Shown one piece after another: positions 1,023-32,931 of a stretch of DNA of 64,000 bases (its first letter is position 1; each line of letters begins with the position of its first letter). The stretch lies in the IMG/VR virus record IMGVR_UViG_3300042504_002519, positions 1 to 64,000 of that record, one strand, 5' to 3'. The stretch comes from a virus. The position numbers were made by a program, and so were the translations under genes. Under the pieces are notes generated by a model, which saw nothing but the letters and a program-made list of their open reading frames with translations, ran no database searches and was not told the DNA's origin.

Positions 1023-1110
1023 GGTTCCCCGCTGCGGTGGGGGTGTGTCGTGGGGGTGTGTCGCTGGACTGCTGCAGGCGGTGCGGATCCCACTGTGGTG
1101 GGAGTGTGCC
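1023..1110 (+). CRISPR. Mini repeat cluster (2 hairpin repeats plus a duplicated handle) directly after the ATPase stop
   Basis: GGTTCCCCGCTGCGGTGGGGGTGTGTC and GGATCCCACTGTGGTGGGAGTGTGCC match the array repeat core. Confidence 0.7.
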
Positions 1111-1142
1111 AGAGGTTGTGCCAGTAATTTACTGGGGGTGTA

Positions 1143-1171
1143 TTGACATGCCGATATGGCGGGGGTATATT
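1143..1171 (+). promoter_or_regulatory. Sigma70-type early promoter
   Basis: TTGACA-N17-TATATT, preceded by tandem TGTGCCAG; same architecture at 3244-3272(-), 7459-7488, 12201-12230(-), 33477-33505. Confidence 0.75.
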
Positions 1172-1204
1172 GGAATTGTTGAACCACTTATCGAGGACAA
1201 TCCA

Positions 1205-1492
1205 ATGCTTTACAGTCAACAGGTTGATTTCCCGCTCGCCATCTCTGGTCATGCTCCCGCCCACAATACTCAAGCCGATTACCTGATCGGCAAGTATGTG
1301 GCAAGCGTCCGATCCTCTGGCGGAGTGTTCACGGGCTTTGTCGGGGACACAATGGAAGAGGTTCAAGCTGCTTTTGATCGCGAGCTCTGCGACTGGTGCC
1401 ATGACAATGGTCGTCGGGTGATGCAACCGCATATGGTGCGGAAGCATGTCTACAGCCCTCTTGGTGAAAAATTTGAGCCTTTGCCTGCTTGA
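1205..1492 (+). CDS. Hypothetical early protein
   Basis: ATG at 1205 after CCACTTA/GAGG, downstream of the early promoter. Confidence 0.6.
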   Translation: MLYSQQVDFPLAISGHAPAHNTQADYLIGKYVASVRSSGGVFTGFVGDTMEEVQAAFDRELCDWCHDNGRRVMQPHMVRKHVYSPLGEKFEPLPA

Positions 1493-1683
1493 TCAGGCAA
1501 GCAATCGATTCCCTACGCCCCTAGCCCTCGATGGGGGCTTTGTTTTGGCGCTAGGCTACGAACGCTAGGCCCCTAGCGCCATGGAGCTTTTGGGGGGTTC
1601 ATACCTCTGCAATGGATAGGGTATGACGTTGCAACCCCTTGCAAAGTATGACTATGGGCATACTTTTGATAGCGCTTAAAGGT

Positions 1684-2055
1684 ATGACTATGGCAACCAC
1701 TACCAACCTTCTAACCATTTCCATCCACGAGGACGAGGATCCCACCGTGGCCATGAACGAAAACTGGGGATCGTCCTACTTTCTGTCTAAGACCAAGCCA
1801 AAGACGCCAGAAGTCCTGGCCCGACTAGCTGGCAAGATCAACCAGCAGGTGGTGCAGGACGGCAAGCGCCGACGGCTATCGTTTTGGGTAGTGCGCAAGC
1901 CACCCCGCCAGCAAGGCGACCAGCCCAAGGCCAAGGTAGCCATTACCCTGGACGCTGACCTACTGGCCCTGGTGGATGCCCGGGCTGAGGCGGATCGCTC
2001 CTACCGCAGCACCGTAATTGAAGCGGCTTTGAGGGAGTATTTGGATCCAAAATAG
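1684..2055 (+). CDS. Ribbon-helix-helix (CopG-like) DNA-binding protein
   Basis: C-terminal KVAITLDADLLALVDARAEADRSYRSTVIEAALREYL. Confidence 0.7.
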   Translation: MTMATTTNLLTISIHEDEDPTVAMNENWGSSYFLSKTKPKTPEVLARLAGKINQQVVQDGKRRRLSFWVVRKPPRQQGDQPKAKVAITLDADLLALVDARAEADRSYRSTVIEAALREYLDPK

Positions 2056-2201
2056 GCTAAAAAATGGCATGGGGGAATTAATGCCTATTATCTTTTGAGG
2101 GTAAGAGGCGGTGAAACCCTTGCTAGGCAAGGGCTAGAGAAAAGTTGCGGATACAATTTCCTTGGAGGAAAGCGGATACATAGGCTTACTTAAGTAGTAC
2201 A

Positions 2202-2881
2202 ACTGGACTCCCACGCTAGTGGGGATACTTGGCGACGTAGGATCCACCCCCACGAATGTGTGGGTCAAGGGCTGTCAGGATCTACCCCCACCGCAGTGGG
2301 GAACGCTAGCTGAGCCAGGGTGAAAAACTCCCACGATGGCGGGTAAGTTCCTGGACGGACTCCCACGGAGTGGGTTGATTTGTGTAGAGACAGACTCCCA
2401 CGGGGTGGGATAAGCGGGAACTATCGGAAAAACTCCCACCGAAGTGGGGAAGAAATACCTGAGCTAGGGCGACAGACTCCCACAATGGTGGGGCTAGTAG
2501 GCCCGGGCAATGGCAGACAGACTCCCACGGGGGTGGGGTGCATGAGTTAACCGCAAATTGACAGACCCCCACTTCGGTGGGGTGCGGGAACTGTCCCTGA
2601 TCGACAGACCCCCACCGGGGTGGGGCTAGCTGGCCTGAGGAAAGGGACAAACCCCCACCGAAATGGGGAGGTGGTTGCCAGGGCCTAGCCCATGTGCCTG
2701 CGGGCGTCGTAAGATCCACTCCCACCGAGTGGGGAGGTGTTTGCGAGAGCCGGGTACTAAGCCGGTAGCTAGGCCTTCTCACGAAAAACCCCCACCCTGG
2801 TGGGATGTGCTTTGCGAGAGCTAGTAAGCCACCAATTCTGCCCAGATCTTCACTAGAAGCACCCCCACCGAAGTGGGATCC
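2202..2881 (-). CRISPR. CRISPR array A (about 15 degenerate type I-E-like repeats; 3 long spacers, then short units)
   Basis: Repeat core CCCCAC-N4-GTGGGG/A-GTNNNTC; periods 73,70,67 then 43,43,44,45,44,38,35,32,43,38,39. Confidence 0.9.
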
Positions 2882-2923
2882 ACTTACCACCAAGTTGTCA
2901 ATGTCCTGGCAGCAGTATAGCAC
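2882..2923 (-). promoter_or_regulatory. Array A leader (extended -10 plus boxA-like motif)
   Basis: GTGCTATACT..CAGGACATTGACAACTTGGTGGTAAGTGG, conserved in all four array leaders. Confidence 0.8.
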
Positions 2924-2947
2924 ATTGCTGGCCAGAGCCGCACAAGC

Positions 2948-3241
2948 AAAACCCCAGCCATGGGGCCGGGGTCTGCGGGGGTGGTGGGTGGAGGGAAGTT
3001 ATATTGCCCAGACGTACCACCCTTTTCCGTCACACCAGTTGGTACCGTGACCAACTAACGTTTTTTTATTGTCAAATATTTCGCAATCAAGGGAACCCAA
3101 TTCCCCACGGACGACGGCAGTACCCTCAAAATTTGAGGGTAGGGGCTTAAGACCCCTGAGGGTTCCAGCAATATGGAGTTCCCGGTTCTGAGTGCTAGTG
3201 ATTTTCATAGCTTTGTCCTCTCTGTAAGTGGTTCAACAATT
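2948..3241. repeat. About 295-bp inverted duplication, copy 1 (copy 2 at 33508-33800)
   Basis: Near-identical reverse complement covering 5' UTR, 69-aa ORF and terminator. Confidence 0.9.
2999..3208 (-). CDS. Small early hypothetical protein (duplicated gene)
   Basis: Own promoter, RBS and terminator; second copy at 33541. Confidence 0.7.
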   Translation of the reverse strand: MKITSTQNRELHIAGTLRGLKPLPSNFEGTAVVRGELGSLDCEIFDNKKTLVGHGTNWCDGKGWYVWAI

Positions 3242-3290
3242 TCAATATACAGGGGGTGTATCGACTTGTCAACACCCCCGGCCAAACAAA

Positions 3291-4109
3291 CTACCCCGCC
3301 ACAACCCATTCCTTCCACGCCAGCGGGCTAGCCTGGTTCAGGATCATGCCCGATACCCTGACAGGCCCCGTCAGATCGAACTCGGCTAGGCCTTTGGTTA
3401 GATGGCGCAGGCTGGCCCGGCCAAGGGACCATGGATCGACCAGGGTGCATTTCACCCCAGCAGCCACCACGATCCCGTCAGGGAACGCCTGGAGTCGCCG
3501 CCATGGCCACATGAGGTATTGCACCAGATCGGGGTTGTCAGCGTCCAGCGTCTCGGCGTAGTCGATGGGGCGCTTCCACCAGGGCACCCAGGACGATGCC
3601 GGCGCCGCATTGAGTTCCAGGAAGTCCGCTAGGGTATCGCCCCACTTCCAGGCCACCAGCTGGCCCATGTGGCTGGGCTTAGGCCCGCTGATCGGCAGGC
3701 CTTTTACCTGGGCCTTGAGCCCGGGCCTATCGCAGAAGTAGGCGGTGACTAGCGCCTTGATCAGGTCGGCCTCGGTTGGGCTGGCCAGGAAGTTGCGGGG
3801 CACCAGGGCAGGGCCGGAACCATCCATCAGGTCCATGATCGCCTGCGGGCTACGGATGGAGGCCTCAGGCAGGCCTGTTACCTGCAGGAATCCTGGCTCG
3901 CCCCAGTTGTTCCACAGCGGCATATCGCCTGGCAATGGCTGGTTTTTCATAGTGACGCTGGCCATAGCCAGCAGCAGGCGTAGGAACGCCTGGCGGGTGA
4001 GGTGGCCTTCGCTGATGTCGGTGTAGGCTTCAGGGCTGGCCAGTAGGTCGGCCAGGCTGGCGGTGCCCTGGGGGGTGGCAATGCAGGGGTAAGTAAAGAT
4101 GTCGGCCAT
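3291..4109 (-). CDS. cas8e: Truncated Cas8e (Cse1/CasA)-like large subunit, 272 aa
   Basis: Probable start MADIFTYPCI with GGAG RBS; Cse1-like motifs SLADLL, AFLRLLLA, FLQV, GDTLADFLELN, PWW, YLMWPWRRL, DPW; about half normal length. Confidence 0.75.
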   Translation of the reverse strand: MADIFTYPCIATPQGTASLADLLASPEAYTDISEGHLTRQAFLRLLLAMASVTMKNQPLPGDMPLWNNWGEPGFLQVTGLPEASIRSPQAIMDLMDGSGPALVPRNFLASPTEADLIKALVTAYFCDRPGLKAQVKGLPISGPKPSHMGQLVAWKWGDTLADFLELNAAPASSWVPWWKRPIDYAETLDADNPDLVQYLMWPWRRLQAFPDGIVVAAGVKCTLVDPWSLGRASLRHLTKGLAEFDLTGPVRVSGMILNQASPLAWKEWVVAG

Positions 4110-4178
4110 GTGGTTCTCCAGATAACGAAAAAGTGTTACTATCCAATTGTAAGCCATTAGTTGGGTTGCGAGCCGCAG

Positions 4179-4823
4179 ATGAATTTCCCACATGATGTTG
4201 TCAGAGATGCCTGGGCCGTCCGCCATGGTGGCCGCACCGAGGTGTCCGTAGGCCAGGACCGCATTGATATCGTTGTTGATGGCGACCAGTACGACACGCT
4301 GGTGGAGGTAAAGCCTGCCCACCAGGTGCGGGAGGCCATCGGCCAGGCCAATAGCTACCAGAGACGCTGGACTCGGCCCAGCAAAAAGCACTTGCTGCTA
4401 TTTCATGAGACTGGCCTACCGGCTAAGTCTACGGTGGAGCGCCTACGGACCCACCAAGCCTCCGGTGAGTTGTCCAGCTTCACATGGGAGATAGTGCCAG
4501 CGGTGCCCCGGCCTAGCTACCACATTGCTGGGGTGCCGATCAGCTTTGAGCGGGCTAAGGCAGATATTTGCGGCCATGTGGCCCGCATCAAGCGCAGTTT
4601 CCAGGATGGCCCTATTGCCGCCAACGATAGGGCTTTCCTGCACTACCTAATTGTCGGCGGCCAACGCCAGGCCCAGGGCGCCCAGCTAGCCTGGGGCGAC
4701 AAGGGTATTGAGCTGCAGGTAGTGCGGTTCGACAACAACGTGTTTGGCTTGTCTGCCCGATCCGCTGCGGTGGACTGGCTCAGACAGGCTAACTACAAAG
4801 CTGTTTACGGAGGATCACGATAA
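4179..4823 (+). CDS. PD-(D/E)xK nuclease with a C-terminal DCL/DUF3223-like domain, first gene of the cas operon
   Basis: E..RIDIV..LVEVK..AIGQANSY motif; stop overlaps the cas6 start (TAATG). Confidence 0.7.
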   Translation: MNFPHDVVRDAWAVRHGGRTEVSVGQDRIDIVVDGDQYDTLVEVKPAHQVREAIGQANSYQRRWTRPSKKHLLLFHETGLPAKSTVERLRTHQASGELSSFTWEIVPAVPRPSYHIAGVPISFERAKADICGHVARIKRSFQDGPIAANDRAFLHYLIVGGQRQAQGAQLAWGDKGIELQVVRFDNNVFGLSARSAAVDWLRQANYKAVYGGSR

Positions 4824-5506
4824 TGCTGTATTTGTCACGTTTTGCCCGGCCAGATGGCCATGGTAGCCTGCACCGCTATGTGATGGCGGGTTTTCCGGAT
4901 GATCTGGGCCCAGACCCCCGCAAGCAAGCTGGGGTGTTGTTTCGGGTTCAAGTCAATCGGGAGCCGGATTTTTTCGCTGCTGAAAATGACAATGAGTTGA
5001 TTGATAAGCGCGAATGCGCTGAAGGCGGATCCATTCTGGTGCAGTCAACCATGAAGCCGAAATGGCCAAAAAGCTATGAAGCTGAAGTGAAGCTGGAATT
5101 TAAGCCTAGCCTGCTAAAGGCGGAAAAGCGCTACCGGTTTCGTTTTGGTCTAAATTCCGTTGCCCAAAGTAACCGAGATGGCCGGTGCCGGCGTTATCCG
5201 GTGCCTGTTAGCCAATGGCTGGCGGCCAGGGAAGAAATGCTGGGCGCTACTTTTGACATTCGCAAAGTGGAGTCCATGGTTCTTTACGACCATGTAAGGC
5301 GAGAGCATTACACTCGTTCATTCCCCATTCATGTGTCGGTGATCGACGGATATTTACGTGTCACTGATCCCATCAAGCTGGCTCAGGCCATCCGCGAGGG
5401 CATTGGCCGGGAGAAGGCCTACGGCTGCGGGCTGCTGTCCTTGCTGCCGGTGGTGGCGGTGACTCCCGCGCCGTCGCCTGCCCTGGTGGGTGTGGCTCAA
5501 ACCTGA
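4823..5506 (+). CDS. cas6e: Type I-E crRNA endoribonuclease Cas6e (Cse3)
   Basis: MLYLSR start, LHRYV..FP, ILVQS, YRFR, G-loop GIGREKAYGCGLL. Confidence 0.93.
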   Translation: MLYLSRFARPDGHGSLHRYVMAGFPDDLGPDPRKQAGVLFRVQVNREPDFFAAENDNELIDKRECAEGGSILVQSTMKPKWPKSYEAEVKLEFKPSLLKAEKRYRFRFGLNSVAQSNRDGRCRRYPVPVSQWLAAREEMLGATFDIRKVESMVLYDHVRREHYTRSFPIHVSVIDGYLRVTDPIKLAQAIREGIGREKAYGCGLLSLLPVVAVTPAPSPALVGVAQT

Positions 5507-5509
5507 GCA

Positions 5510-5573
5510 GTGGCCCCACTCCGGTGGGCGTGGATCGACAACCAAAAAGGCCCCACAGGCGTGGGGGTGGCCA
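5510..5573 (+). CRISPR. Two repeat units inside the cas6-cas7 intergenic region
   Basis: CCCCACTCCGGTGGGCGTGGATC and CCCCACAGGCGTGGGGGTGGCC, period 37. Confidence 0.8.
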
Positions 5574-5602
5574 CCAGGCCCAGTCCTTAAGGGAGGAACC
5601 TT

Positions 5603-6838
5603 ATGTTTATCGAACTGCACCTGATCCATGCCTTGCCGCCCAGCAATGCCAACCGGGACAAGTCCGGGGCACCCAAAAAGATCCAATACGGTGGTAGCTG
5701 GCGGGCCCGGCTCTCCAGCCAGTCCCAGAAGCGGGCCGCCCGGCAGCACTACGAGCAATGGATGGCGGTTGACCGCAAGGCCTTAGCCTTTCGCAGCCGT
5801 CGCCATGACGTTGCCCTGGCTACCCGCCTAGCTTTCGGCGATGACGATGACAACCTGATGGTGGCCCGGTTCCTGCTGGGCTTATTCAACCTCAAGAACG
5901 ACAACCTGATCCCGGCCATGCTGGAGGAGCCCAGCAACTTGCTGTTCCTCTCAGAGCATGAGCTAGACACCATCGCCGCCATTGCCGCCGACTACCCGAT
6001 CTTGTTGCAGGACATGCTGGAGCGGGCCCAGCGTTATCGGGCAGCGTTGGATCCAAAGCCCAAGAAAGCGCCTGAGGCTGAGCATCCATCCGCCAGGGAT
6101 CTGCAAGGTATCCGCAAGGCCCTAGCCCAGCTAGGTCAGCAAGTGCCCGGTAGCGTGGCCCTGTTTGGCCGGATGATGGCCAGCCTGACTGAGGCCAGCG
6201 TCGATGGCTGCACCCAGGTGGCGGATGCCATCTCGGTTAATTCCTTTGGTATCACCAATGTCAAGGGCATGGGCCAAGTGATTGGCGAGCCAGACTTTTT
6301 CACCGCCGAGGATGATGTCGCTCCGATGGATGAAGAGGCTAAGGCTGGGGCGGGCCACCTGGGGGAGCTGCCTATCGTCTCGCCTGTGTACTACCGCTAT
6401 GCCAACCTCAATGTCACTGAACTAGCCTGCTTGGTTGGTGACCCTGGGCTGGCCCAACAGTTTGCCCGGGGATTCTTGACGGCATTCTGCGCTACCCTGC
6501 CCACCGGCTATATCCGCAGCCATGCCCACCTAACCCTGCCTGACTATGTGCAGATTAGCTGTACTGCTGCTCAGCCTTACACCTTGGCACCGGCATTCCA
6601 TGTGTCAATCAATAGCTGCACCACCGACGACGACTTCCTAGCCCAGGGTATCCCGCACCAGGCCGCTGATGCGCTGCGCCAGTACCAGGACCGGCTAAAC
6701 GTCATCTACGGCGACAAGTCGCTGTACAAAGCTGAAGTGACTACCCAGCCAGGCTGGTTCGGCCAGCCCCTGGACGGGGCCATTGATGGGGCCCTGCAAG
6801 TAGCCATGGGTGCTGGCAAGGAGGTGGCCTATGCCTAG
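5603..6838 (+). CDS. cas7e: Type I-E backbone subunit Cas7e (Cse4/CasC)
   Basis: MFIELHLIHALPPSNANRD.SGAPK..YGG..RARLSSQSQKRA, ALFGRM, DFFTA.DD, GAGHLG, YYRYANLN, LPTG. Confidence 0.95.
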   Translation: MFIELHLIHALPPSNANRDKSGAPKKIQYGGSWRARLSSQSQKRAARQHYEQWMAVDRKALAFRSRRHDVALATRLAFGDDDDNLMVARFLLGLFNLKNDNLIPAMLEEPSNLLFLSEHELDTIAAIAADYPILLQDMLERAQRYRAALDPKPKKAPEAEHPSARDLQGIRKALAQLGQQVPGSVALFGRMMASLTEASVDGCTQVADAISVNSFGITNVKGMGQVIGEPDFFTAEDDVAPMDEEAKAGAGHLGELPIVSPVYYRYANLNVTELACLVGDPGLAQQFARGFLTAFCATLPTGYIRSHAHLTLPDYVQISCTAAQPYTLAPAFHVSINSCTTDDDFLAQGIPHQAADALRQYQDRLNVIYGDKSLYKAEVTTQPGWFGQPLDGAIDGALQVAMGAGKEVAYA

Positions 6839-7277
6839 GCTAGTCCTGAAGCTAGCAGGCCCCATGGCTGCCTATGGCACCGGGCCACGGCTGCAGCAAC
6901 GACTGACGGAGGATGCCCCAACTGAGTCGGCGATCCGCGGCATGTTGTGTGCTGCCCTGGGGATACGTCGAGGCCAGTCAGCGCCGGAACTGGACGGGCT
7001 GCAGGTGGAGATAGGCGAGACAAGCCATGGCGGAGTGTTGGAGGACTTCCACACCATCCGCGATGCTATCACCTATGACGGGGCCCCAGGCCGCAATGCC
7101 ATCACCACCCGGCACTACCTGAGCGACTTCAGTTCCACCGTTACCCTGCGGGGTGACTTGCAGCAGATCCGCACCATTGCCAAGGCGCTGGCCCGGCCCA
7201 AGTTCCAGCTATACCTGGGACGCCGTAACTGTGTCCCAACTGGCCCGATCTGGGCTGTTGCCCGGGAGGAAGTTTAG
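6831..7277 (+). CDS. cas5e: Short Cas5e (CasD), 148 aa
   Basis: LVLKLAGPMAAYG, PTESAIRGMLCAALG, DFHT, RHYLSD, LYLGRRNCVP; lacks the usual C-terminal part. Confidence 0.92.
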   Translation: MPRLVLKLAGPMAAYGTGPRLQQRLTEDAPTESAIRGMLCAALGIRRGQSAPELDGLQVEIGETSHGGVLEDFHTIRDAITYDGAPGRNAITTRHYLSDFSSTVTLRGDLQQIRTIAKALARPKFQLYLGRRNCVPTGPIWAVAREEV

Positions 7278-7278
7278 C

Positions 7279-7426
7279 CGGTTCCCCACACTGGTGGGAG
7301 TAGTTCGTGTACTGCTTTAGCTCCCCACTGCGGTGGAGGTGGATCCAATATTTATAACAGGCCCCACCAGCGTGGGAGTGGATCCTATGTCAGTATCCCC
7401 TACTTCCCACCTGGTGGGAGTGTGCC
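7279..7426 (+). CRISPR. Leaderless mini-array of 4 repeats directly after the cas5 stop
   Basis: Hairpin cores at 7284, 7323, 7362, 7405 (periods 39, 39, 43). Confidence 0.85.
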
Positions 7427-7542
7427 AGAAGTTGTGCCACTAATATACCCCTAGCATATTGACAGGCCCGATATACCCCGGCTATATTGGTGACATGCCG
7501 CACCGCTACAGCGGCCATCCACACTACACAAGGATTAACGCT

Positions 7543-8010
7543 ATGAACACCGCCACTATCACCGCCACCCGCCACAATGGTTCTTTCGTCGCCTCCGCCT
7601 GGGAGTGCTGGTACGGAGCCTCTGACCGGGCCTGCCAAGCCACCGCCTGGGCCTGGGGCCTGTATACCGAAGCATTCTTTTCTGAAGCCGCCATGGCTCG
7701 TTACCGCTGGGCTGGCCAGATGATTGCCTGCCTGGGCCTGCTGGCCTACCTGGCTGGCAAGCTGATCCGCTTGTGGCTACAGCCCAGGGTTGATGCCTGG
7801 GTAGATAGCTGCCAAGCCCCTGAGCCCGTCCAGGAGGCCCCAGAGCCAGCCCCGGCACCGGTAGCTAGCCCAGTGCCCCAACCCCAACCCGAGGCCACCC
7901 CGCTGGCCGCCCTGGGTATCCGGGAGTTGCGCAAGCTGGGCACTGCTCGGGGCGTCAAGGGTGCAGCTCGGATGAAAAAGACTGAGCTACTGGCCAGCCT
8001 AGCGGCCTAG
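7543..8010 (+). CDS. Hypothetical protein with TM segment and C-terminal Rho-N-like domain
   Basis: LGIRELRKLGTARGVKGAARMKKTELL; follows the early promoter at 7459-7488. Confidence 0.6.
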   Translation: MNTATITATRHNGSFVASAWECWYGASDRACQATAWAWGLYTEAFFSEAAMARYRWAGQMIACLGLLAYLAGKLIRLWLQPRVDAWVDSCQAPEPVQEAPEPAPAPVASPVPQPQPEATPLAALGIRELRKLGTARGVKGAARMKKTELLASLAA

Positions 8011-8074
8011 ACCACTGCCGCTACCCCACAGCGTAGCGAGGGGACCAACCACTTACACCGAAAGGATCAACGCC

Positions 8075-8423: not shown

Positions 8424-8838
8424 GGTGGACCCACTTCGGTGGGGGTTTCTCCTTCGCTCCCCCCACGGTGGCCACTATTCGGCCTAAGCAAAACACACCC
8501 CACTTCGGTGGGGGTTTCTCGCTTAGTGGCATTGCCCATCTTTAGCGCTGGCCTCGCAAAGCACACCCCACTCCGGTGGGGGTTGATCTACGGCCATCGA
8601 CAACGATCAGGCCATGCCTATCTCGCAAAGCAGGCCCCACCTCGGTGGGGGTTTCTCGGTCTGTGGCGTGTCGTGGTGGATGGTCTGCCTAACGTGACTC
8701 GCAAACACCTCCCCACTCCGGTGGGGGTTATTCGTGGGCCTACCTCTCCATCGTAAACGGCGGTTTCGCCATCCCCACTTCGGTGGGCGTTCTTCCAGCC
8801 CGTACCTCTCCTATACCCCACCCCTGTGGGAGTTTTCG
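8424..8838 (+). CRISPR. CRISPR array B (7 repeats)
   Basis: 36-nt repeat CTCGCAAAGCACACCCCACTCCGGTGGGGGTTTCTC variants; periods 69,68,69,76,62,about 43. Confidence 0.9.
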
Positions 8839-9760: not shown

Positions 9761-9764
9761 GGCT

Positions 9765-12171: not shown

Positions 12172-12365
12172 GGGATGTAGTGGTGGTTGACAACAATTTC
12201 AATATACAGGGGGTATATAGGGCTTGTCAATATACCTCAGGTAAATTAGTGGCACAACTACTGGCACAGGCAAAGAATTGATCGGAATGATCAATAACTC
12301 GATCAATAACTGGCAGTAAAAAAACCCCAGCTCATGCCGGGGTAGTTCGTCCTTAAACGTGCCCG

Positions 12366-12388
12366 AAGGCACCCCCACGGTGGTGGGG
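12366..12388 (-). CRISPR. Solitary repeat unit at the 3' end of the leftward replication operon
   Basis: CCCCACCACCGTGGGGGTGCCTT, 11 nt after a stop and upstream of the terminator at about 12317-12342. Confidence 0.6.
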
Positions 12389-12399: not shown

Positions 12400-12591
12400 C
12401 TAGAACGGCGGCCCAATACAGTCCAGGTCGTCGGGATCGTCCATGTTCAGGCTGAACAGTCCGCCAGCTTCGTTTGGCTGCACCATAACTGTGCTGCCTA
12501 CTACAGTCTTGACGGTAGCTGCTACCCAGGGCTGGCTCTTGGCTGGGCGGAACATTACGGAGTAGCCGGGGCGTAGGGATAGTCTGCTCAT
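12400..12591 (-). CDS. Hypothetical protein
   Basis: Coupled to ssb stop. Confidence 0.6.
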   Translation of the reverse strand: MSRLSLRPGYSVMFRPAKSQPWVAATVKTVVGSTVMVQPNEAGGLFSLNMDDPDDLDCIGPPF

Positions 12592-20444: not shown

Positions 20445-20626
20445 GCGCCACCATCGCCCGGCTGCGCCCCTGCCTGGCCGGGCGGCTATCCATTTTTCTG
20501 CATACACGGGCCCAGTACTTACGCCAGATCATTGCTAGGCACCCTGAGGATGGGGCTGCACAGCACGAACTGGAGCTAGTGCTAGCCCAGATCCGATACC
20601 TACCCTTTATTGAGGAACGACCATGA
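20441..20626 (+). CDS. Hypothetical protein
   Basis: Overlapping start/stop with both neighbours. Confidence 0.5.
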   Translation: MSATIARLRPCLAGRLSIFLHTRAQYLRQIIARHPEDGAAQHELELVLAQIRYLPFIEERP

Positions 20627-20959
20627 ACTTACCCGCTGACCCTACCCGCACCGAGATCTTGGCCTACCTGCTGGCCTACTCAGCCTACTGGCGGGGTGAA
20701 CTAGAGAGCGCTATGGATGCGGCCAATGTGCCGTCGAGCAGCATTAACGCCATCCAGGGCGACTTATCTGCCGCCCTGTTTGCTGAAACGACCATGAACT
20801 TACCCGCTGACCCTACCCGCTCCGAGGTGCTGGCCTACCTGCTGGCCTACTCAGCCTACTGGCGGGGTGAACTAGAGAGCGCTATGGATGCGGCCAATGT
20901 GCCGTCGAGCAGCATTAACGCCATCCAGGGCGACTTATCTGCCGCCCTGTTTGCTGAAA
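20616..20959 (+). repeat. 171-bp near-perfect tandem duplication
   Basis: Units start at 20616 and 20787. Confidence 0.95.
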
Positions 20960-21441: not shown

Positions 21442-22302
21442 ATGTTGACCACGCGACGGCTATCAGATGAAGTCCTCGAAATCCGGATCCGCTACACCGG
21501 GGAGGAAACCTATCACTTTTTGTTGGCCAGCGACATTCACCTGGATAACCCAAAGTGTGATCGCAAGTTATTCTTTTCTCACCTCGACAAAATGAAGGCT
21601 CTCGGTGGTAGGGCCTTATTTTTTGGTGATGTGCTATGCCTGATGCAGGGCAAGCGCGACAAGCGGGGCAGCAAGGCCAGCATTCGCCCCGAGCACCAGG
21701 GCGCCAACTACTTTGACTTGGTATTCAAGGAGTCCGCTGACATTCTGGCACCCTACGGCCAGGAGATCCTAATGATGGGCAACGGCAACCATGAGACAGC
21801 CATCATCAACCACCAGGAGATAGATCCCCTGGCTAATGTGGTACAGCAGCTGCGGGGCCGCCACGGGGCCATCACCGAGCACATGGGCTATCAGGGCTGG
21901 ATCCGGTTTGTGTTTTACAAAGAACGGGGCCGAGGCGTCGAGGCTGTTCGGCGGTGCAACCTGTTCTTTCACCACGGGGCCTGGGGTGGTATTGTCACCA
22001 AGGGCACCATGGGCGGTGGCCGGTATGCCAGCATTGCACCGGACGCGGATATTATCGTCAATGGCCACAATCACGAGCGCAGCATCGTTTCTCACCCTTG
22101 CTACCGGTTGATCGAAACCGGCAAGGTGCGGGTGACGCCCCGATACCACGTGCAGTCTGGCACCTACAAGGAGGAGTTCGCTGGTAGCAACGGCTGGGCG
22201 GTGGAGCGGATCGTCATGCCGAAATCTCTAGGCGGCGTCTGGCTGAGGCTGACTCCCACTAAGTCCGCTGGCGTTGTGGTTTCACTGGAACCGGCTAGCT
22301 GA
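21442..22302 (+). CDS. Calcineurin-like metallophosphoesterase
   Basis: SDIH, GD, GNHE, HHG, GHNH motifs. Confidence 0.88.
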   Translation: MLTTRRLSDEVLEIRIRYTGEETYHFLLASDIHLDNPKCDRKLFFSHLDKMKALGGRALFFGDVLCLMQGKRDKRGSKASIRPEHQGANYFDLVFKESADILAPYGQEILMMGNGNHETAIINHQEIDPLANVVQQLRGRHGAITEHMGYQGWIRFVFYKERGRGVEAVRRCNLFFHHGAWGGIVTKGTMGGGRYASIAPDADIIVNGHNHERSIVSHPCYRLIETGKVRVTPRYHVQSGTYKEEFAGSNGWAVERIVMPKSLGGVWLRLTPTKSAGVVVSLEPAS

Positions 22303-22356: not shown

Positions 22357-22863
22357 GTCGACCCACTTTGGTGGGAGTTTTTCAAGGTCTATCGTCAGTC
22401 ACCCCTGCTACCGGCTATACTGGCCTGGATCCCACTTCGGTGGGGGTTTTTCGCACTCAGTCGGTAGCCACTCGCGGCCAGCGCCAAAGCCTACCCCACC
22501 CCAGTGGGGGTTTATCTGGGAGTTTTTCGCCACCCCTGCTACCGGATGATCGAAACCACGCTGGCCTGGATCCCACCCTGGTGGGCGTTTTTCGCTCGAT
22601 AAGGGATCCCCATTTTGGTGGGGGTGTATCCGAAGACTGGCAACGATATGGCCCCACTTCGGTGGGAGTGGTTCTTTCCCCGTGGTTAGCCCCGCGCTGG
22701 TGGGGGTGGCTCTCGCTTTGTGCCCGCCCCACCCTGGTGGGAGTTCGTCCCAACTCTGGTTGTACCCCATCCTGGTGGGGGTTTATCTTGACTATGGCGA
22801 CTCCCCACTGCTGTGGGAGTGTGTCAATCTGCAGTTCGCCCCCCACTCTGGTGGGAGTAAAAC
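22357..22863 (+). CRISPR. CRISPR array C (11 repeats plus one partial)
   Basis: Three long units then periods 37,44,38,37,38,38,38; terminator at 22915-22939. Confidence 0.9.
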
Positions 22864-23585: not shown

Positions 23586-24217
23586 AACCCCCACCGTGGT
23601 GGGGATAGCCTAGCAAGTGAACAACGCCCACAGGGGTGGGGATGGTTTGACGAGGGAGAGACGCCCACGGAGGTGGGGCTGCGTCTTGCAGGCAGGATCA
23701 ACGCCCACCAAAGTGGGGCTGGCTGCAAGGACGAGAGACCCCCACGGTGGTGGGATGTGATGCAGTTCTAGGAAGTACTCCCACCGAAGTGGGGAGGTGT
23801 TTGCGAGGGAGCTATCCACCGCCGCTAGGGTTTCCTTAGCGAGAAACCCCCACCGAAGTGGGGAGGTGTTTGCGAGTTGCCTAGCAGCTCCCCCAGGTTG
23901 GCCTGCTCGAGGAACCCCCACCGAAGTGGGGTGTGCTTGCGAGATGGCTAGGGTGATGGCACCCGACCTAGTAAGGCCAGAGAAACCCCCACCGGAGTGG
24001 GGTGTGCTTTGCGAGGGCCCAGCTGGATACCGTGGCATCGGAGCTATCCACCGAGAAACCCCCACCGGAGTGGGGTGTGCTTTGCGAGGACCGCCAAGCA
24101 ACTTTAAGCAGGTGAAACAAAATGAGGAGAAACCCCCACCGAAGTGGGGAGGTGGTTGCGAGACACGGCGCTGGCCGATAGCCAAAACCACGAAAAACCC
24201 CCACCGGAGTAGGATCC
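23582..24217 (-). CRISPR. CRISPR array D (12 repeats; 6 long spacers, then short units)
   Basis: Two identical 36-nt repeats at 23980 and 24053; periods 65,74,73,71,68,69 then 39,37,40,37,37. Confidence 0.95.
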
Positions 24218-28131: not shown

Positions 28132-28133
28132 GG

Positions 28134-28523
28134 CTAGCTCCAATAGACAAGGCCGCTGAGGCCAACGACAGGGATCGCTGGATTAGCTTCACCCACCGGC
28201 ACCCGATCAACAGCCGTCTGGGCAGAAATAGCAGGGTCGCCATCAGCGTCAAGCAGGTTGAACTCTTGCAGTAAAGTGCCATCCCGGTTGTATTGATAGG
28301 CTTTGCTTTGGCCGTAGTTGATTTGAAATCGCCCTGTAGTGAAAGCTTGGATCAACGACAGGCTAGTGGCTAGGCTAGCCCCAGTACTGCCTGAGTCGAG
28401 ATGATCGCTGATGAGCACATCCCAGACAGCACCCGCAATAGATGCGATACTCTCGGGAGTGAGGCCCCCTTCAGTTGGCCCGAAAAAGCCATCAGTGGCT
28501 AGTCGCAAGGGATCTAGGCTCAT
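28134..28523 (-). CDS. Hypothetical virion protein
   Basis: IAGAVWD motif; coupled. Confidence 0.5.
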   Translation of the reverse strand: MSLDPLRLATDGFFGPTEGGLTPESIASIAGAVWDVLISDHLDSGSTGASLATSLSLIQAFTTGRFQINYGQSKAYQYNRDGTLLQEFNLLDADGDPAISAQTAVDRVPVGEANPAIPVVGLSGLVYWS

Positions 28524-29044
28524 GGCTGCCTCGTGCTAGTGACGGTATTGCCGTCGTTTGTTTCGGCATGGACAATTTGAATGCCACCCTGGCCCAAGGT
28601 TTCGGTTACAGCCCCGGTCGTTAGGTTGCGAGTTCTGGTAACAGGGTTGGTAGTATCAAGCTGTGCCTTCCGCCATAGCTCGTTGAGCCTGGTGTTTTGC
28701 TCAGTGGTGAGGCCTGAGGCTGTGGTTAAAGTCCGGGTGACATAGGCCCAAACAGCAGCGCTAATCTCTGCTTCTGTCGGCAGTAGCTGAATAGCTGCCA
28801 GAATGGCGGCATCATCCGGCTTACTGCTAACCACATCAATTCCCAACAACCTTGCTCCAGCATTGGCAAACCAGCGTACCTCGCCGCCTGTATCCGGCAG
28901 CTCCACTGCAGCCCGCCAAATGCCATCGCCCAAGTGGGTGCCATTGGTCAGGTTGCCTAGGGTAGTGCCATCAAATAGGCGATATTGAATGCCCGCTGTG
29001 TAACGGGAACCCAGGCTAGCGATGCTGGTGATAGTTTGGGGCAT
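28520..29044 (-). CDS. Hypothetical virion protein
   Basis: ISAAVWAYVTRTLT motif; coupled. Confidence 0.55.
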   Translation of the reverse strand: MPQTITSIASLGSRYTAGIQYRLFDGTTLGNLTNGTHLGDGIWRAAVELPDTGGEVRWFANAGARLLGIDVVSSKPDDAAILAAIQLLPTEAEISAAVWAYVTRTLTTASGLTTEQNTRLNELWRKAQLDTTNPVTRTRNLTTGAVTETLGQGGIQIVHAETNDGNTVTSTRQP

Positions 29045-29343
29045 TAGGCGACTCCTATGGCAGTAATAGCGCCATCGGTGCGGGTAATGGTCTTGGTACG
29101 CACTACCGCAGGGCTGCGGGTGTAGTCAGTTTCGGTGATGCTGGTAATAGCGCCATTGGTGCGGGTGATGGCTTTGCGGTACAGCTCCGCCCCGCCATTG
29201 CTGACGTAGATGCTAATTTGCGTGATAGCGCCATTGGTGCGGGTGATGGTTTTGTAAAACGGTTCAGGCCGCAAGGAGACCAGCGGCAAAATGTTGGTGG
29301 TTTCCAGGTTGCCCGAACTGCCGAGCTGGACTGCCTTAGTCAT
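29044..29343 (-). CDS. Hypothetical virion protein with 3 internal KTITRTNGAIT repeats
   Basis: Repeats visible in both DNA and protein. Confidence 0.55.
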   Translation of the reverse strand: MTKAVQLGSSGNLETTNILPLVSLRPEPFYKTITRTNGAITQISIYVSNGGAELYRKAITRTNGAITSITETDYTRSPAVVRTKTITRTDGAITAIGVA

Positions 29344-29347
29344 GGCG

Positions 29348-29869
29348 TTATACCACTGTCAGCGTGATTGGTGGATCATTCTCAAAGACAATTGACGTAG
29401 GTGCGATTGCATTGCCAAGCCGCTGCAAGATAACGTTCGCGCCAGGGGTAGCAGGGGCGGTAGACGAAAATCCACCCGCAGCAGTAGCACTCAAGAACAC
29501 TGGGCCAACGGTGGCACCGGTGACAGCGGTATTGCGCCCAGATAGGTACACCGTGGCATTAGCAGGAGAAGTCACCCCCGTCAGTACATAGCCAATGGCA
29601 GGGCGATTGTTGCTTGCATCCGCCTTGCGGGCTTTGACAGTACCAGTGTCGTCAAAAACGTTTACAAAGTCGCCAGCGGTTAGATTTTCGCTGGTTGGCA
29701 GAAGCACTGTTTGAAGCTCAACACCAGGTGGCAGAAAGGTGGTATCTAGCAGACCCGAGCTATTGGTAGCGATCAGCTTGTTGGCATCGCCTGCCCCAGC
29801 ACTGCTGCTAGGTGCCTCAGTCAAGGTAGGGGTGCCGCTTACAACGGTTAAAAACTTTTTCGTCGTCAT
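29348..29869 (-). CDS. Capsid cement/fibre-like protein
   Basis: ENLTAGDFV..KADAS..AIG..FLS motifs. Confidence 0.55.
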   Translation of the reverse strand: MTTKKFLTVVSGTPTLTEAPSSSAGAGDANKLIATNSSGLLDTTFLPPGVELQTVLLPTSENLTAGDFVNVFDDTGTVKARKADASNNRPAIGYVLTGVTSPANATVYLSGRNTAVTGATVGPVFLSATAAGGFSSTAPATPGANVILQRLGNAIAPTSIVFENDPPITLTVV

Positions 29870-29873
29870 GGGG

Positions 29874-30272
29874 TTAGGCTCCTAAGAATATGGGAGAAGG
29901 TGGTTGAAGGTTAATCGTCGTAGCTGAGACTGGCTGGGCCAGCACTAGCAAAAAGCCCGTGGTGGGTGGCGACTGGGTAAGCTGGCCATTGGTGCCCAGG
30001 TAAATGGGGCTGCCACGGGTCCAGTTCCACACAGCATCGCTAATTTCCCCTAGCCGGTAGGCTACGCCTTCAGCCCCTTGGCTGATCGCATAGGGCAAGA
30101 TGCCAGCAACTCGGTAGGCATGGCTGGAGGTGCTGCTGTCTGCATAGGCAAACTGGCCTGCATTGTCGAGGATTACCGCCCTGATGGCCGATAGGTTGAT
30201 GCTGGCGGTGGCAGTGGTGACCGCATCGCCAAGATCGGGGAGTAGTGAAACTGGCAGGTAGACAACGCCCAT
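29874..30272 (-). CDS. Capsid cement/fibre-like protein
   Basis: WNWTRGSPIYLGTNGQLTQSPPTTGF. Confidence 0.55.
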   Translation of the reverse strand: MGVVYLPVSLLPDLGDAVTTATASINLSAIRAVILDNAGQFAYADSSTSSHAYRVAGILPYAISQGAEGVAYRLGEISDAVWNWTRGSPIYLGTNGQLTQSPPTTGFLLVLAQPVSATTINLQPPSPIFLGA

Positions 30273-30280
30273 AGCTCCTC

Positions 30281-30715
30281 CTATAGCACCAATGCGGTAA
30301 TGTCGTCAGCCTTGGCGTTGAGTGTATCCACACTCGCCTGGCTAGCCTTGGTGTCCACGCTGGCCTGAGTCGCTAGGCCCGATAGCTGCGTGTCCATATT
30401 GGCGCTAGCCAGCCCCAGGGCGGCGCGGATACCTGCGGCCTGGTCTGCTTGGTTGGGCGCGGGTTCAATCGCTACGGCACTCAGGAACGCCCCTGCCGCT
30501 CCTGCATTGTTCAAATACCATTCCAGCGTCCCGCCATCGTCAGGGGCGCTTATACCGCCATTCACCCGGTAATAGCCAGTAGCAGAAACCTCCGCTACCC
30601 CTGTGGTGGTAAAGGCTGTGGCAATGGTCGTGCCATCGACCGCACGGATAAGATAACCAACGCTTTGGCTAGCTCGAGTGGGGGCGACAAGGGCGGCGGG
30701 GATGACTTGGGTCAT
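30281..30715 (-). CDS. Hypothetical virion protein
   Basis: Operon position. Confidence 0.5.
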   Translation of the reverse strand: MTQVIPAALVAPTRASQSVGYLIRAVDGTTIATAFTTTGVAEVSATGYYRVNGGISAPDDGGTLEWYLNNAGAAGAFLSAVAIEPAPNQADQAAGIRAALGLASANMDTQLSGLATQASVDTKASQASVDTLNAKADDITALVL

Positions 30716-31014
30716 GGCTCATTCTCTGGCCATTGGGGCATTGGGTGGTGAACTTTAATCGCTTCCAGCAAGGCACAAAAAGCCGTAAAGGGTTGTGTCT
30801 GAAATCGCTCGGCAAGTTCAGCAAAACCAGGAAATGCCAGGGCAGCTTGATCGGCGGCGTCTAGAGAAGGATAGTTACGTTCAAATCCTTGCTGTAACGG
30901 GCCAACAATGGGCGGCTCACCCTCAAAGGTGGCTACTCGACGCCAGTAGCTTTGCATAGAGATAGCGCCTGAGGGAATGGCAATGTCAGCCTGAAATCTC
31001 GAAAGTTGTTCCAT
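30712..31014 (-). CDS. Hypothetical protein (possible fibre chaperone)
   Basis: Follows a fibre-like gene. Confidence 0.45.
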   Translation of the reverse strand: MEQLSRFQADIAIPSGAISMQSYWRRVATFEGEPPIVGPLQQGFERNYPSLDAADQAALAFPGFAELAERFQTQPFTAFCALLEAIKVHHPMPQWPENEP

Positions 31015-31016
31015 AG

Positions 31017-31844
31017 TTAAGTTTTCACTTTAATAACGTTGCCGTCTCGCCATAGGTCACCGACGGCTATTGAGGCGTCTGAAGTAGGCAAATTAGCAAA
31101 ATTTATCTTTGAGCCCCCCACGTTTAGGTTTTGAGCAATACCTACCCCACCGGCTACGGTCATAGCTCCTGTAGTTGTCGAAGTACTTGAAGTGGTAGCG
31201 TAGTTAATGAAAGTTGCCGCCGTCATCCTGTAAACGAGAGATGTTGAATCCCTGCTAAGAGGGATTAAATACCAATCTGCTGCCATTGCTACACGGTTAT
31301 TAGGATCCCCTGGAGCTGCTGTAGTCAAGGCAGTAAAGATCAAAGATGCTCCCCCTCCGCTCCACTCCTCAAATCCCCTAGGGCGTGCAGCAAAAACAAA
31401 TATCCAATCATCAGCTAGCACCCCGGAAGGATTTGAGATGCTTCCTCTCGCCCTTCTCCCCTCAAATCCAGTATGCGAGAAATAAAAGTCGCTGTTGTAT
31501 ACCTCAGCCAGAAAACTGTTAAGGGGTCTATTACTTTGAGAAAAAAACGGCAATTCAGAGTTTAGAACAGAAATTGCAGTTGTCTGGGGATTTGCAGGGG
31601 AAACAGCGACCGACCCCAATCCGCTTAAATTGCCCCCAGTAATGGCTACCGCATTAGCATTTTGAGCCGACATAGTCCCCAGGGTAGGCGCACCGCTCAG
31701 ACTGGAATAGGGAAGTAGGGATATTACCCACTTCCCTAGAGAGCTATTCCAGATTAACGGGTAGCCATTCTGGCCAACCTCAGGGTTCACCGATACGTCG
31801 GTCAGTTCCTTGAGTTGCGAGGGGGACAGATACGCTGTAGGCAC
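31017..31844 (-). CDS. Tail fibre-like protein
   Basis: LGTMSAQNANAVAITGG, STSTTTGAMTVAGGVGIAQNLNVGG, NLPTSD..GDLWRDG; AT-rich. Confidence 0.6.
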   Translation of the reverse strand: MPTAYLSPSQLKELTDVSVNPEVGQNGYPLIWNSSLGKWVISLLPYSSLSGAPTLGTMSAQNANAVAITGGNLSGLGSVAVSPANPQTTAISVLNSELPFFSQSNRPLNSFLAEVYNSDFYFSHTGFEGRRARGSISNPSGVLADDWIFVFAARPRGFEEWSGGGASLIFTALTTAAPGDPNNRVAMAADWYLIPLSRDSTSLVYRMTAATFINYATTSSTSTTTGAMTVAGGVGIAQNLNVGGSKINFANLPTSDASIAVGDLWRDGNVIKVKT

Positions 31845-32015
31845 TACTCCAGCCCTCCATTTAGTCCAAATTTAGTCCATCCGTAACTACCCAAACTCAC
31901 AACCCCCACTACACAGGGGTTCTGTGGCGTTGAATAGTTGCGGGGAGAGCAGCTAGTACCCATGTTCGTATCTATGGCCCTACTTTTCCTGTTCACTCCT
32001 CCATAGTGTGCCCAA

Positions 32016-32115
32016 TGTGCCAGTTGCGATGTGCCAGTTAGGTTATCGCAAGAATGGATCCACTTTGCCGTAACTTGTGCCAGTTGACTGTGCCAACCAA
32101 CCTATGTGCCAGTTG
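32016..32115 (+). repeat. Cluster of five TGTGCCA(GTT) direct repeats
   Basis: Copies at about 32016, 32030, 32076, 32090, 32105 in a roughly 480-bp non-coding region upstream of a recombinase. Confidence 0.8.
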
Positions 32116-32332
32116 AGCAAGCCAAGCTAAGCCGGTTTTCGTTCTCACCATTCCCAATGTGAGACACTGTAACGAGGTTTCAAGGGTTTCAGCCTGTCTC
32201 ACGCTGTCTTACGGGCTCAAAGCCACTACCAGCGGCTAGGATGGCGTAAATTCGTTATTTTTACCTTATAAAATACAAATTAGTTAAGGTAGAATGGTTT
32301 TGAACTGGCACACTTACAAAGGACGATCACCC

Positions 32333-32875
32333 ATGGCGGGACAAGCCAAAGTATTAACCCAAGATGAGATAGACACACTCCTATACCATTGCTCCAGTCC
32401 TCGGGACCGGGCCTTGATCGGGTGCATGTTATTTTGTGGCCTGCGAGTAGCCGAAGCGGTGGCCCTCAGTCCGAGTGATATAAAAGGAGGGATGCTTGTA
32501 CTACCCAAAGCGAAGACCAAGGGCAAGCTAGCCAGCCGGTCCATTCCGGTGCATCCTAGCCTAATGCTGTTGCTGCAACAATACGGTCCACCCCAGGGCG
32601 AGTACCTATTCCCTGGCCGTCATGGCCGGGGCCACCTGCACCCCGCCAGCGCCAGCCAGGTGATCCAAGACTGCCTTACCCTAGCAGGCCTCTGCGGGCT
32701 GGGCATCACCACCCATAGCTTCAGGCGCACCGCCCTGACCAAGTTGAGCAATGCCGGCGTCCCCCTGCGGGTGATCCAACAGATCAGCGGCCACAAGAGC
32801 CTAGCCAGCCTGCAGTTGTACCTGCAAGTCACACCAGACCAGGTGGAATCGGCGGTGCTGGCAGCGTTTAGTTGA
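32333..32875 (+). CDS. Small tyrosine recombinase (catalytic domain only)
   Basis: GLRVAE, KTKGK, THSFRRT, SGH, LY. Confidence 0.9.
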   Translation: MAGQAKVLTQDEIDTLLYHCSSPRDRALIGCMLFCGLRVAEAVALSPSDIKGGMLVLPKAKTKGKLASRSIPVHPSLMLLLQQYGPPQGEYLFPGRHGRGHLHPASASQVIQDCLTLAGLCGLGITTHSFRRTALTKLSNAGVPLRVIQQISGHKSLASLQLYLQVTPDQVESAVLAAFS

Positions 32876-32931
32876 CTCCCACCATTGTGGGGCCTGCATC
32901 CCCTGGCCGAACCACTCCCACGCATGTGGGC
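32870..32931 (-). CRISPR. Two-repeat mini unit
   Basis: CCCACATGCGTGGGAGTGGTTC and CCCCACAATGGTGGGAGTCAAC, period about 39. Confidence 0.7.

Follow-up and report, generated by a model that had tools for sequence, protein, structure and literature searches.

Why should a virus that carries a CRISPR effector of its own place solitary copies of a repeat-type hairpin directly behind the stop codons of its genes, even within its cas operon? The question is raised by the IMG/VR virus record IMGVR_UViG_3300042504_002519 (77.5 kb; CheckV completeness 69%), the first 64 kb of which are referred to here as the window. The virus is a lake cyanophage with a stripped-down CRISPR complex (mini-Cascade) built on Cas6e, Cas7e, and Cas5e. 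DNA near-identical to the record is held by many lake-water metagenomes, and the nearest cellular Cas7e proteins, with ~32–37% identity, come from cyanobacterial type I-E loci; Cas7 relatives with 37–49% identity are P0020–P0039. Besides four arrays with leaders (A1–A4), the record contains seven leaderless clusters of hairpins (S1–S5 in the window, S6 and S7 beyond it), each of one to five units and each located at the end of a gene.

The hairpin core CCCAC-N4-GTGGG, with at most one mismatch, occurs 52 times in the window, compared with 4.85 ± 2.26 copies in shuffled sequences, and when loops of 3–5 nt are allowed the whole record contains 63 units. The structural half of the genome (33–67 kb) holds none of these, all units being confined to the early half, and none of the 63 lies inside a called gene; all are in non-coding DNA. 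Nearly every hairpin is accompanied on one side by the sequence G/A-GT-NNN-TC, an 8-nt handle placed as in type I-E repeats. Because the handle is present on one side of the hairpin, a strand can be assigned to each unit, and the assignment is clear-cut for nearly all 63. The solitary module is 24 nt long and consists of the hairpin (CCCCAC, a loop of 3–5 nt, and GTGGGG) followed by the 8-nt 5′-handle GTNNNTCN; all solitary units have a 5-bp core with no more than one mismatch. In the arrays, leader-proximal units have a 37-nt repeat made up of a 13-nt 5′ part, a 16-nt hairpin, and the 8-nt handle GTTTCTCG, with spacers of ~32 nt, and distal units consist of the hairpin and handle alone, with a period of 37–45 nt. 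The leader motif is common to the four arrays and is found nowhere else in the sequence, in agreement with a first-pass annotation of this DNA, according to which none of the solitary hairpins has the array leader; the hairpin coordinates given there were all correct.

In six of the seven clusters (S1, S2, S3, S4, S6, and S7), the handle lies on the strand of the upstream gene, and the first stem follows the stop codon after 6, 7, 6, 11, 6, and 7 nt, respectively. The joint probability of such stop-proximity for the six co-oriented clusters is ~1e-6, assuming uniform placement in intergenic regions and given crude gene calls. It is to the stop codon, not to the following promoter, that the clusters are anchored. 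A similarity to the 5′ part of type I-E repeats is seen in the 5 nt in front of the S1 and S3 stems (GGTTC), so that a full 29-nt repeat-like unit starts ~1 nt past the stop. S2 occupies the 96-nt gap between cas6e and cas7e, and the remaining leader of ~36–37 nt holds the ribosome-binding site. The four handles of S3 are, in order, GTAGTTCG, GTGGATCC, GTGGATCC, and GTGTGCCA, separated from the following stems by linkers of 15, 15, and 19 nt, and the loop of the fourth unit is 3 nt long.

We propose, with about even credence, that these units are Cas6e processing sites within early mRNAs, which would define and cap 3′ ends and release CRISPR RNA (crRNA)-like molecules. Type I-E Cas6e cuts at the 3′ base of the stem, whereby the downstream product receives the 8-nt 5′ handle, and the enzyme remains bound to the upstream hairpin after cleavage. 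The phage Cas6e aligns with solved Cse3/CasE structures in the PDB: its LHR motif (residues 16–18) falls opposite the LHR of Thermobifida fusca (T. fusca) Cse3, and the C-terminal glycine-rich loop is retained. In type I-E Cas6e, the histidine at this N-terminal position is the catalytic residue. The sequence itself establishes the strand, position, and conservation of the units, their lack of U-tracts, and an intact Cas6e motif; we infer that early transcription runs through the units, that they are cleaved and capped by protein, and that expression may be affected. The phage Cas6e, and possibly also a host type I-E Cas6e reading the same stem, would cut the transcripts at the 3′ base of the hairpin, and the upstream messages (ATPase, nuclease-cas6, cas7-cas5, the replication operon, and two others) would end in a Cas6e-capped hairpin and, where the junction lacks a terminator, would thereby be separated from whichever cistron or promoter comes next. 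Multi-unit clusters would release RNAs of 37–45 nt, each comprising a handle, a 12–21-nt linker, and a hairpin, and these would probably be bound by Cas5e and Cas7e like miniature crRNAs, as suggested by the conservation of the handle and the distribution of linker lengths into classes. A more far-reaching version, in which genes take the place of spacers, appears possible to us but rather doubtful. Cas6e would there act as a general mRNA maturation system, with early cistrons, including cas7-cas5, which have repeat units on either side, excised like giant crRNAs; each message would carry a 5′-OH handle leader and a Cas6e-capped 3′ hairpin, neither terminators nor host enzymes such as RNase III would be required any longer, and early expression would be tied to the level of Cas6e.

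Conservation was assessed in the related phages G001 (Cas7 88% identical), G002 (83%; with direct terminal repeats), and G003 (95%; a fragment), as well as in several metagenome fragments. When subjected to the same scan, the full genomes of G001 and G002 were found to have every cluster at the orthologous junction, and S4 is kept in three relatives. The gap between the stop and the first stem is 6–8 nt (11–13 nt for S4) in the phage studied here (G000), G001, and G002. Place is conserved to a greater extent than number: S2 has 2 or 3 units, S3 has 3, 4, or 7, S5 has 2 or 3, and S6 has 5 or 7. In alignments, stems and handles are constant and loops vary (for example, AGGC to GGCG and GCTA to GCCA), one unit having CCCCAT/ATGGGG as a compensatory stem. 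Many linkers have nothing in common from one genome to the next; that of S7 measures 36, 40, and 20 nt in the three genomes and is wholly different in sequence, with flanks that are ~90% identical.

A similar architecture is displayed by a distant relative, L017, a contig binned with a cyanobacterial metagenome-assembled genome (MAG), in which Cas7 is 35% identical. Its mini gene set (L017 6620–9753) comprises cas8e-like (272 aa), cas6e (182 aa), cas7e (434 aa), and cas5e (148 aa) genes, and the adjoining region (L017 9757–14879) contains ~30 degenerate units with the handle GTTTRTC among small open reading frames (ORFs). The motif GGRGGTNNNTC, corresponding to the stem end plus handle, is present there in 30 copies, compared with 1.0 expected, and all 30 are on the gene strand. 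The motifs begin 3 nt past the cas5 stop and recur just behind three further ORF ends; their stems include the compensatory variants CTCCAC/GTGGAG and CCCCAT/ATGGGG. In the rest of the MAG, the motif is not enriched outside that element, and a profile scan of IMG/VR returned known relatives only. Conservation of the clusters in the relatives, together with the architecture of L017, marks the stop-anchored units as a trait of this phage lineage. Dispersed host repeats of the repetitive extragenic palindromic (REP) or bacterial interspersed mosaic element (BIME) type were considered as an identity of the units and rejected, the units being confined to phage records with a mini-Cascade and showing no enrichment outside the L017 element.

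Table 1. Leaderless clusters, arrays, transcription signals, and neighbouring genes (window coordinates unless stated otherwise).
Feature	Position	Strand	Evidence or setting
S1 unit 1, CCCCGC-TGCG-GTGGGG + handle GTGTGTCG	1027–1050	+	6 nt past ATPase stop (1020); kept in G001 and G002
S1 unit 2, hairpin + GTGTGCCA	1088–1111	+	Fused to conserved element upstream of promoter 1143–1171
S2 unit 1, loop TCCG, handle GTGGATCG	5514–5537	+	7 nt past cas6e stop (5506)
S2 unit 2, loop AGGC, handle GTGGCCAC	5551–5574	+	~36–37 nt before cas7e ATG
S3, four units, stems at 7284, 7323, 7362, and 7405	7284–7427	+	6 nt past cas5e stop (7277); upstream of promoter 7459–7488
S4, single repeat-type hairpin (12373–12388), then second GC hairpin (12359–12372)	12359–12388	−	11 nt past stop 12400
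S5, two units	32877–32931	− (handles)	1 nt past integrase stop (32875); small plus-strand membrane-protein gene on other side
S6, five units	67750–67913 (genome)	−	Gap 6 nt; beyond window
S7, two units	75950–76023 (genome)	+	Gap 7 nt; beyond window
Array A1 with leader	2210–2877	−	Long units near leader, then 35–45-nt mini units
Array A2 with leader	8430–8830	+	Leader motif
Array A3 with leader	22362–22855	+	Distal 37–44-nt mini units, same design as solitary clusters
Array A4 with leader	23590–24213	−	Distal 37–40-nt mini units
Strong sigma-70-like promoter, 11/12 matches	1143–1171	+	Just downstream of S1
Strong sigma-70-like promoter, 11/12 matches	7459–7488	+	Just downstream of S3
True intrinsic terminator, 8-bp stem + T7	12316–12343	−	Terminator scan; ~30 nt downstream of S4
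ATPase-like gene (P-loop; TrwB/HerA-type, weak)	1–1020	+	Pfam and PADLOC matches, ORF list; stop precedes S1
PD-(D/E)xK-like gene, heads cas operon	4161–4823	+	Weak SfsA-type Pfam match; overlaps cas6e start
cas6e, 227 aa	4823–5506	+	Pfam PF08798 1e-26; PADLOC Cas6e
cas7e, 411 aa	5603–6838	+	Pfam PF09344 2e-66; PADLOC Cas7e
cas5e, short form, 148–155 aa	6810–7277	+	Pfam PF09704 1e-29; PADLOC Cas5e; overlaps cas7e end
Integrase-family gene	32294–32875	+	PHROGs

The same data bear on whether the units act as RNA at all. They might be DNA-level or neutral features, namely scars of array recombination, promoter-side palindromes bound by protein, or, in the case of S5, part of an attachment site. 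The fast change in copy number is what recombination between repeats predicts, a palindromic stem reads alike on both strands, the inverted cluster S5 immediately adjoins the integrase gene, and in S1 and S3 the final unit merges into a conserved element upstream of a promoter. However, handle orientation tracks transcription in six of seven clusters and in 30 of 30 L017 motifs, the anchoring is at the stop side and not the promoter side, and stems and handles are conserved while the linkers around them decay; we consider an origin of this kind highly improbable. S5 is the deviating cluster: its handles, with the consensus GTGGTTC here and GTGGCTC or GTGCTTC in relatives, read along the minus strand in each of the three genomes, against the direction of the genes on either side, and the first-pass annotation is corrected in this respect. 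A minus-strand ORF running through S5 was entertained and dismissed, as it is not conserved in relatives. An inverted cluster beside an integrase gene might conceivably take part in site-specific recombination, such as attachment at a CRISPR repeat of the host. The S5 hairpin with the loop GCAT is identical to repeat hairpins of the type I-E loci L021, L051, L060, and L064.

The units also differ from transcription terminators. No T-run follows the hairpins of S1–S3 and S5, whereas bona fide terminators with T-runs are found at 1517, 8323, 11696, and 12343, and a role of the units as intrinsic terminators was rejected for this absence of U-tracts. In S4, the repeat-type hairpin reported earlier is confirmed, but its 'handle' GTGCCTTC (12365–12372) is imperfect and forms half of a second, unrelated hairpin. 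A scan detected no promoter-like site upstream of the units, which trail stop codons by 1–11 nt. The promoters behind S1 and S3 (TTGACA, 17–18 nt, TATATT) are not separated from the respective cluster by a terminator. The sequence GTGTGCC, read as the handle of the last unit in these two clusters (1088 and 7405), is at the same time the first half of the conserved element upstream of the two near-identical strong promoters. This direct-repeat element (TGTGCCAG, 4 nt, TGTGCCAS, TAAT) is conserved at 1104–1128, 7420–7444, and 12247–12272 (minus strand), ~15 nt upstream of three near-identical strong promoters (TTGACA, 17–18 nt, TATATT), and has the look of an operator at which a phage regulator might control early transcription; a fourth such promoter (3272–3244, minus strand) faces array A1 and has no direct-repeat element.

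GC-rich stems of 5–6 bp right behind stop codons occupy the classic site of an exonuclease barrier, many loops of the array hairpins are UUCG or UCCG tetraloops, and unit numbers vary freely, as might be the case if the hairpins acted independently of Cas proteins to attenuate transcripts or stabilise their 3′ ends, in the manner of REP elements or of hairpins that protect phage mRNAs, and resembled the repeat by descent only. Such a function would not account for the invariance of the stem sequence itself, as opposed to its pairing, for the conservation of the unpaired handle GTNNNTC, or for the confinement of the units to phages encoding a mini-Cascade; in addition, the units have no U-tract, and the phage uses ordinary terminators elsewhere. 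We accordingly attach little probability to it.

To which repeat, then, are the solitary units related? A covariance model of the long array repeat of the phage (R1) recovers the arrays at 30–57 bits and, among the solitary units, matches only unit 1 of S1 over its full length (19.1 bits, E = 0.0015). The solitary units do not have the 13-nt 5′ part of the array repeat (consensus CTCGCAAACACCT), and their handles have only GT...TC in common with the array handle. In the type I-E repeats of cyanobacteria (22 loci; repeat length 29 nt), the same stem, CCCCAC-N4-GTGGGG, is preceded by 5 nt and followed by the 8-nt handle GTGAACCG. The best window matches of a model of these repeats (R2) are the solitary units at 5551–5569 (19.6 bits, E ~1e-3) and 12370–12388 (18.3 bits), but the alignment extends over the hairpin and GTG only (positions 6–24 of 29), leaving the AACCG of the host handle unmatched. 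Unit 2 of S2 is identical over 19 nt to the cyanobacterial type I-E repeats of loci L023 and L035. By count, G occupies the third handle position in 14 of 18 solitary units, in agreement with the host repeats, and T occupies it in 16 of 18 long array units; solitary handles are mostly GTGGATC. In IMG/VR, exact units of this GTGGATC type are restricted to this phage family and four single matches, and none was found in 401 sampled cyanobacterial genomes. No CRISPR-DR or other Rfam family scored above noise, and none of the spacers in 66 type I-E loci matched the phage.

These relationships have to be weighed against the possibility that the units are RNA anti-CRISPR (Racr)-like decoys, that is, early-transcribed repeat mimics that titrate Cas6e, Cas7e, or Cas5e of a host type I-E system. 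The exact stem followed by GTG is shared with the cyanobacterial repeats, the two best hits of the host-repeat model in the window are solitary units, and the G at position 3 of the handle sides with the host rather than with the long array units. Decoys are also expected to be multi-copy and early, and co-transcription with a protein gene has a precedent in RacrIC1-AcrIC5 (PMC10651486). Nevertheless, the mimicry ends after the hairpin and GTG, the 3′ half of the handle being unlike that of the host, the GTGGATC-type unit is absent from the 401 cyanobacterial genomes and in IMG/VR is limited to this family and the four single matches, the phage encodes its own cognate Cas6e, Cas7e, and Cas5e, and the 66 type I-E loci contain no spacer against the phage. 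Decoy function thus seems very unlikely.

The sequences between the units provide a further line of evidence. Handle-to-next-stem lengths fall into classes of 12–16 nt (57 of 128 unique linkers), 19–21 nt, and 24–25 nt, with none at 17–18 or 22–23 nt, in all three phage genomes, and lengths of 36–53 nt form a broader group. Type I-E Cascade has a 6-nt Cas7 periodicity, and a linker ladder of ~5.5–6 nt would fit measurement by the Cas7 backbone; this is suggestive only, because the score for a period of 5 is nearly that for 6 and the units include many mutual copies. The commonest unit period, 37–38 nt, equals the length of the long repeat, so that many mini units may be spacerless repeats with a decayed 13-nt 5′ part. 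S1, S2, S3, S5, S6, and S7 each have at least two units flanking spacer-like linkers of 13–37 nt. A search for seed-anchored matches of linkers in the phage's own genome yielded none above shuffled controls (44 tests; lowest P 0.035), the lowest value belonging to the terminal unit of array A3, which matches position 4144 over 13 nt, and solitary linkers had no matches in the related phage genomes, where array spacers alone were matched. A long A3 spacer (22508–22560) matches the gene just upstream of the array (22093–22119) at 25 of 27 nt and the orthologous gene of G001 (7889–7915) at 26 of 27 nt, and for this reason the phage arrays may target its close relatives.

The clusters might primarily be leaderless mini-arrays, with short crRNA-like guides for regulation or anti-defence, comparable to CreR/CreA or viral Cracr RNAs, as their products; the location in a 3′ untranslated region would then serve just to have them transcribed, and consequences for the mRNA would be incidental. 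The conserved consensus of the solitary handle, which Cas6e cleavage alone does not need, and the discrete linker lengths are compatible with guides, and so are the spacer-like differences between linkers, those of S7 differing among the three genomes and the proximal ones of S3 between relatives. Precedents exist in viral type I-E Cracr arrays, which have 21–24-nt spacers and are processed by Cas6 (10.1101/2024.10.29.618823), and mini-arrays within cas loci are common (10.1101/2023.03.03.530964). By contrast, linker matches in the phage's own genome are no better than in shuffles, the lowest P value coming from the terminal unit of an array, the related phages provide no targets, most linkers are just 13–15 nt long and some are perhaps derived from the repeat, given the 37-nt period, and conservation instead of variation is seen in the linkers of S1 and S2 and in those of the final two S3 units. 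On balance, we regard guide production as the main purpose of the clusters as unlikely. The release of extra short guides had been put forward in the first-pass annotation; the conserved handle and discrete lengths speak for it, and the failure of every linker to match a target in the phage's own genome or its relatives speaks against it.

Several observations weigh against mRNA processing by Cas6e as the function of the units. The strand of S5 is wrong for it. One hairpin would suffice for cleavage, and the multiplicity of units and the conserved handle point to an added or different role. Several solitary stems have 5 pairs only, with C·A or C·C at the base, and the solitary units other than the first of S1 produce weak scores with model R1, matching it in the hairpin only (E from 0.018 to >5). 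In L017, cas6 and cas7 are 8 nt apart with no hairpin between them, so the intra-operon site is not general and the hairpin pair at this junction is not a lineage trait. The idea that cleavage within the cas operon sets subunit stoichiometry is unsupported for the same reason, and a cut at S2 would not separate cas7 from cas5. Minimum free energy folds of whole regions, compared with shuffles, have z scores of −0.5 to −1.4 and are uninformative in the GC-rich repeat context, S4 with its terminator (z = −2.8) being the exception. Finally, the RNA in which the phage is present amounts to four metatranscriptome runs that cover parts of the stretch and consist of assembled contigs only. Taken together, the sense orientation in six of seven clusters, the proximity to stop codons, the lack of U-tracts, the conservation in relatives and the like architecture of L017, the stem shared with the phage arrays and the cyanobacterial type I-E repeats, and the Cas6e motif lend partial support to the earlier suggestion that Cas6 may cut phage mRNAs, with S5 as the dissenting case.

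Among the RNA contigs, one of 879 nt from a freshwater metatranscriptome spans cas7e-cas5e (6399–7270) with 2 differences and ends 7 nt short of the cas5e stop, 14 nt before the first S3 hairpin; DNA carry-over is possible, and an assembled contig carries no information on where an RNA ends. Breaks and chimeric joins of contigs seen at hairpins (for example, from 5570 to 1027) were likewise discarded as candidate RNA ends, since they reflect repeats and strain variants.

As for the genomic setting, the minus-strand operon ending at 12400, behind which S4 is located, encodes a helicase, a methyltransferase, a sliding clamp, and SSB (PHROGs). Within a plus-strand early operon, a 171-nt unit is present in two tandem copies that are 94% identical (20603–20944). 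Hexamer palindromes are skewed across the whole record: TGGCCA, GCTAGC, and GGATCC are over-represented 3.4–4.7-fold, and CGATCG, ACGCGT, CGTACG, CGCGCG, ACATGT, and ATATAT have zero copies. This skew suggests restriction avoidance; the solitary handle contains GGATC.

Processing sites between cistrons are familiar from other contexts. The polycistronic mRNAs of phage T7 have RNase III processing sites between cistrons, and the hairpins of Csy4 (Cas6f) are used in synthetic biology as cistron insulators. By analogy, the proposed Cas6e sites would resemble both in that a hairpin between cistrons is cut, the 3′ hairpin stabilises the upstream message, and neighbours are uncoupled; T7, however, relies on a host enzyme and unrelated hairpins, and the Csy4 arrangement is an artificial design. 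In the literature searched, we found no description of natural Cas6-dependent mRNA punctuation in a phage.

Solitary repeat units and Racrs of phages and plasmids are known (Faure et al. 2019, as cited by Camara-Wilpert et al. 2023, PMC10651486). Racrs share with the phage units the occurrence of isolated repeat hairpins in viral intergenic DNA, with a stem that is type I-E of the likely host phylum in the case of the phage, and some are co-transcribed with a protein gene. Racrs match a host repeat over nearly its whole length, unlike the phage units, whose partial match to the cyanobacterial type I-E consensus covers only the hairpin and 3 nt. Moreover, Racrs, which inhibit a CRISPR-Cas system through sequestration of Cas proteins, are characterised by their own promoter just upstream and by no association with cas genes, whereas the phage units are promoter-less, trail stop codons, and occur beside the cognate cas6e, cas7e, and cas5e. 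The crRNA-like mini-arrays CreA/CreR in cas loci (Shmakov et al., 10.1101/2023.03.03.530964) and the viral Cracr arrays (Liu et al., 10.1101/2024.10.29.618823) likewise have degenerate repeats on either side of a short stretch resembling a spacer and are situated between cas genes or next to them (in type I-B, for instance, around cas6), and the viral type I-E versions are multi-unit arrays processed by Cas6. The known ones have at least 9–11 seed-proximal matches to a cas or toxin promoter, and none is found in the phage's own genome; furthermore, the phage linkers measure 13–15 nt compared with 21–24 nt in Cracr arrays, and units are also located behind non-cas genes, at seven places of the genome. 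As in the adaptation-less CRISPR-Cas systems encoded by other phages (reviewed in PMC11656645), there are cas genes without cas1/cas2, several arrays, and degenerate repeats, but here the repeat is also spread as leaderless clusters of 1–7 units at gene ends in the early region. Thus, solitary repeat units, viral mini-arrays, Racrs, CreA/CreR, and Cracr arrays are already known. What is distinct here is the placement at stop codons at seven junctions, the presence of units inside the phage's own cas operon, their sense orientation and lack of promoters, the conservation of place but not number across the lineage, and the cognate Cas6e encoded by the phage.

If true, cleavage by Cas6e would be a natural counterpart of the engineered Csy4 insulator, with a virus punctuating and stabilising the messages that it makes, its cas mRNAs among them. 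The uses to which CRISPR parts are put outside defence would then extend beyond guides, decoys, and regulators, and the phages would be a source of compact orthogonal pairs of hairpin and enzyme with which operons could be designed. Should the small RNAs themselves be what matters, the units, with linkers of ~13–15 nt, would be the shortest natural crRNA-like units so far, suited to studies of minimal Cascade assembly.

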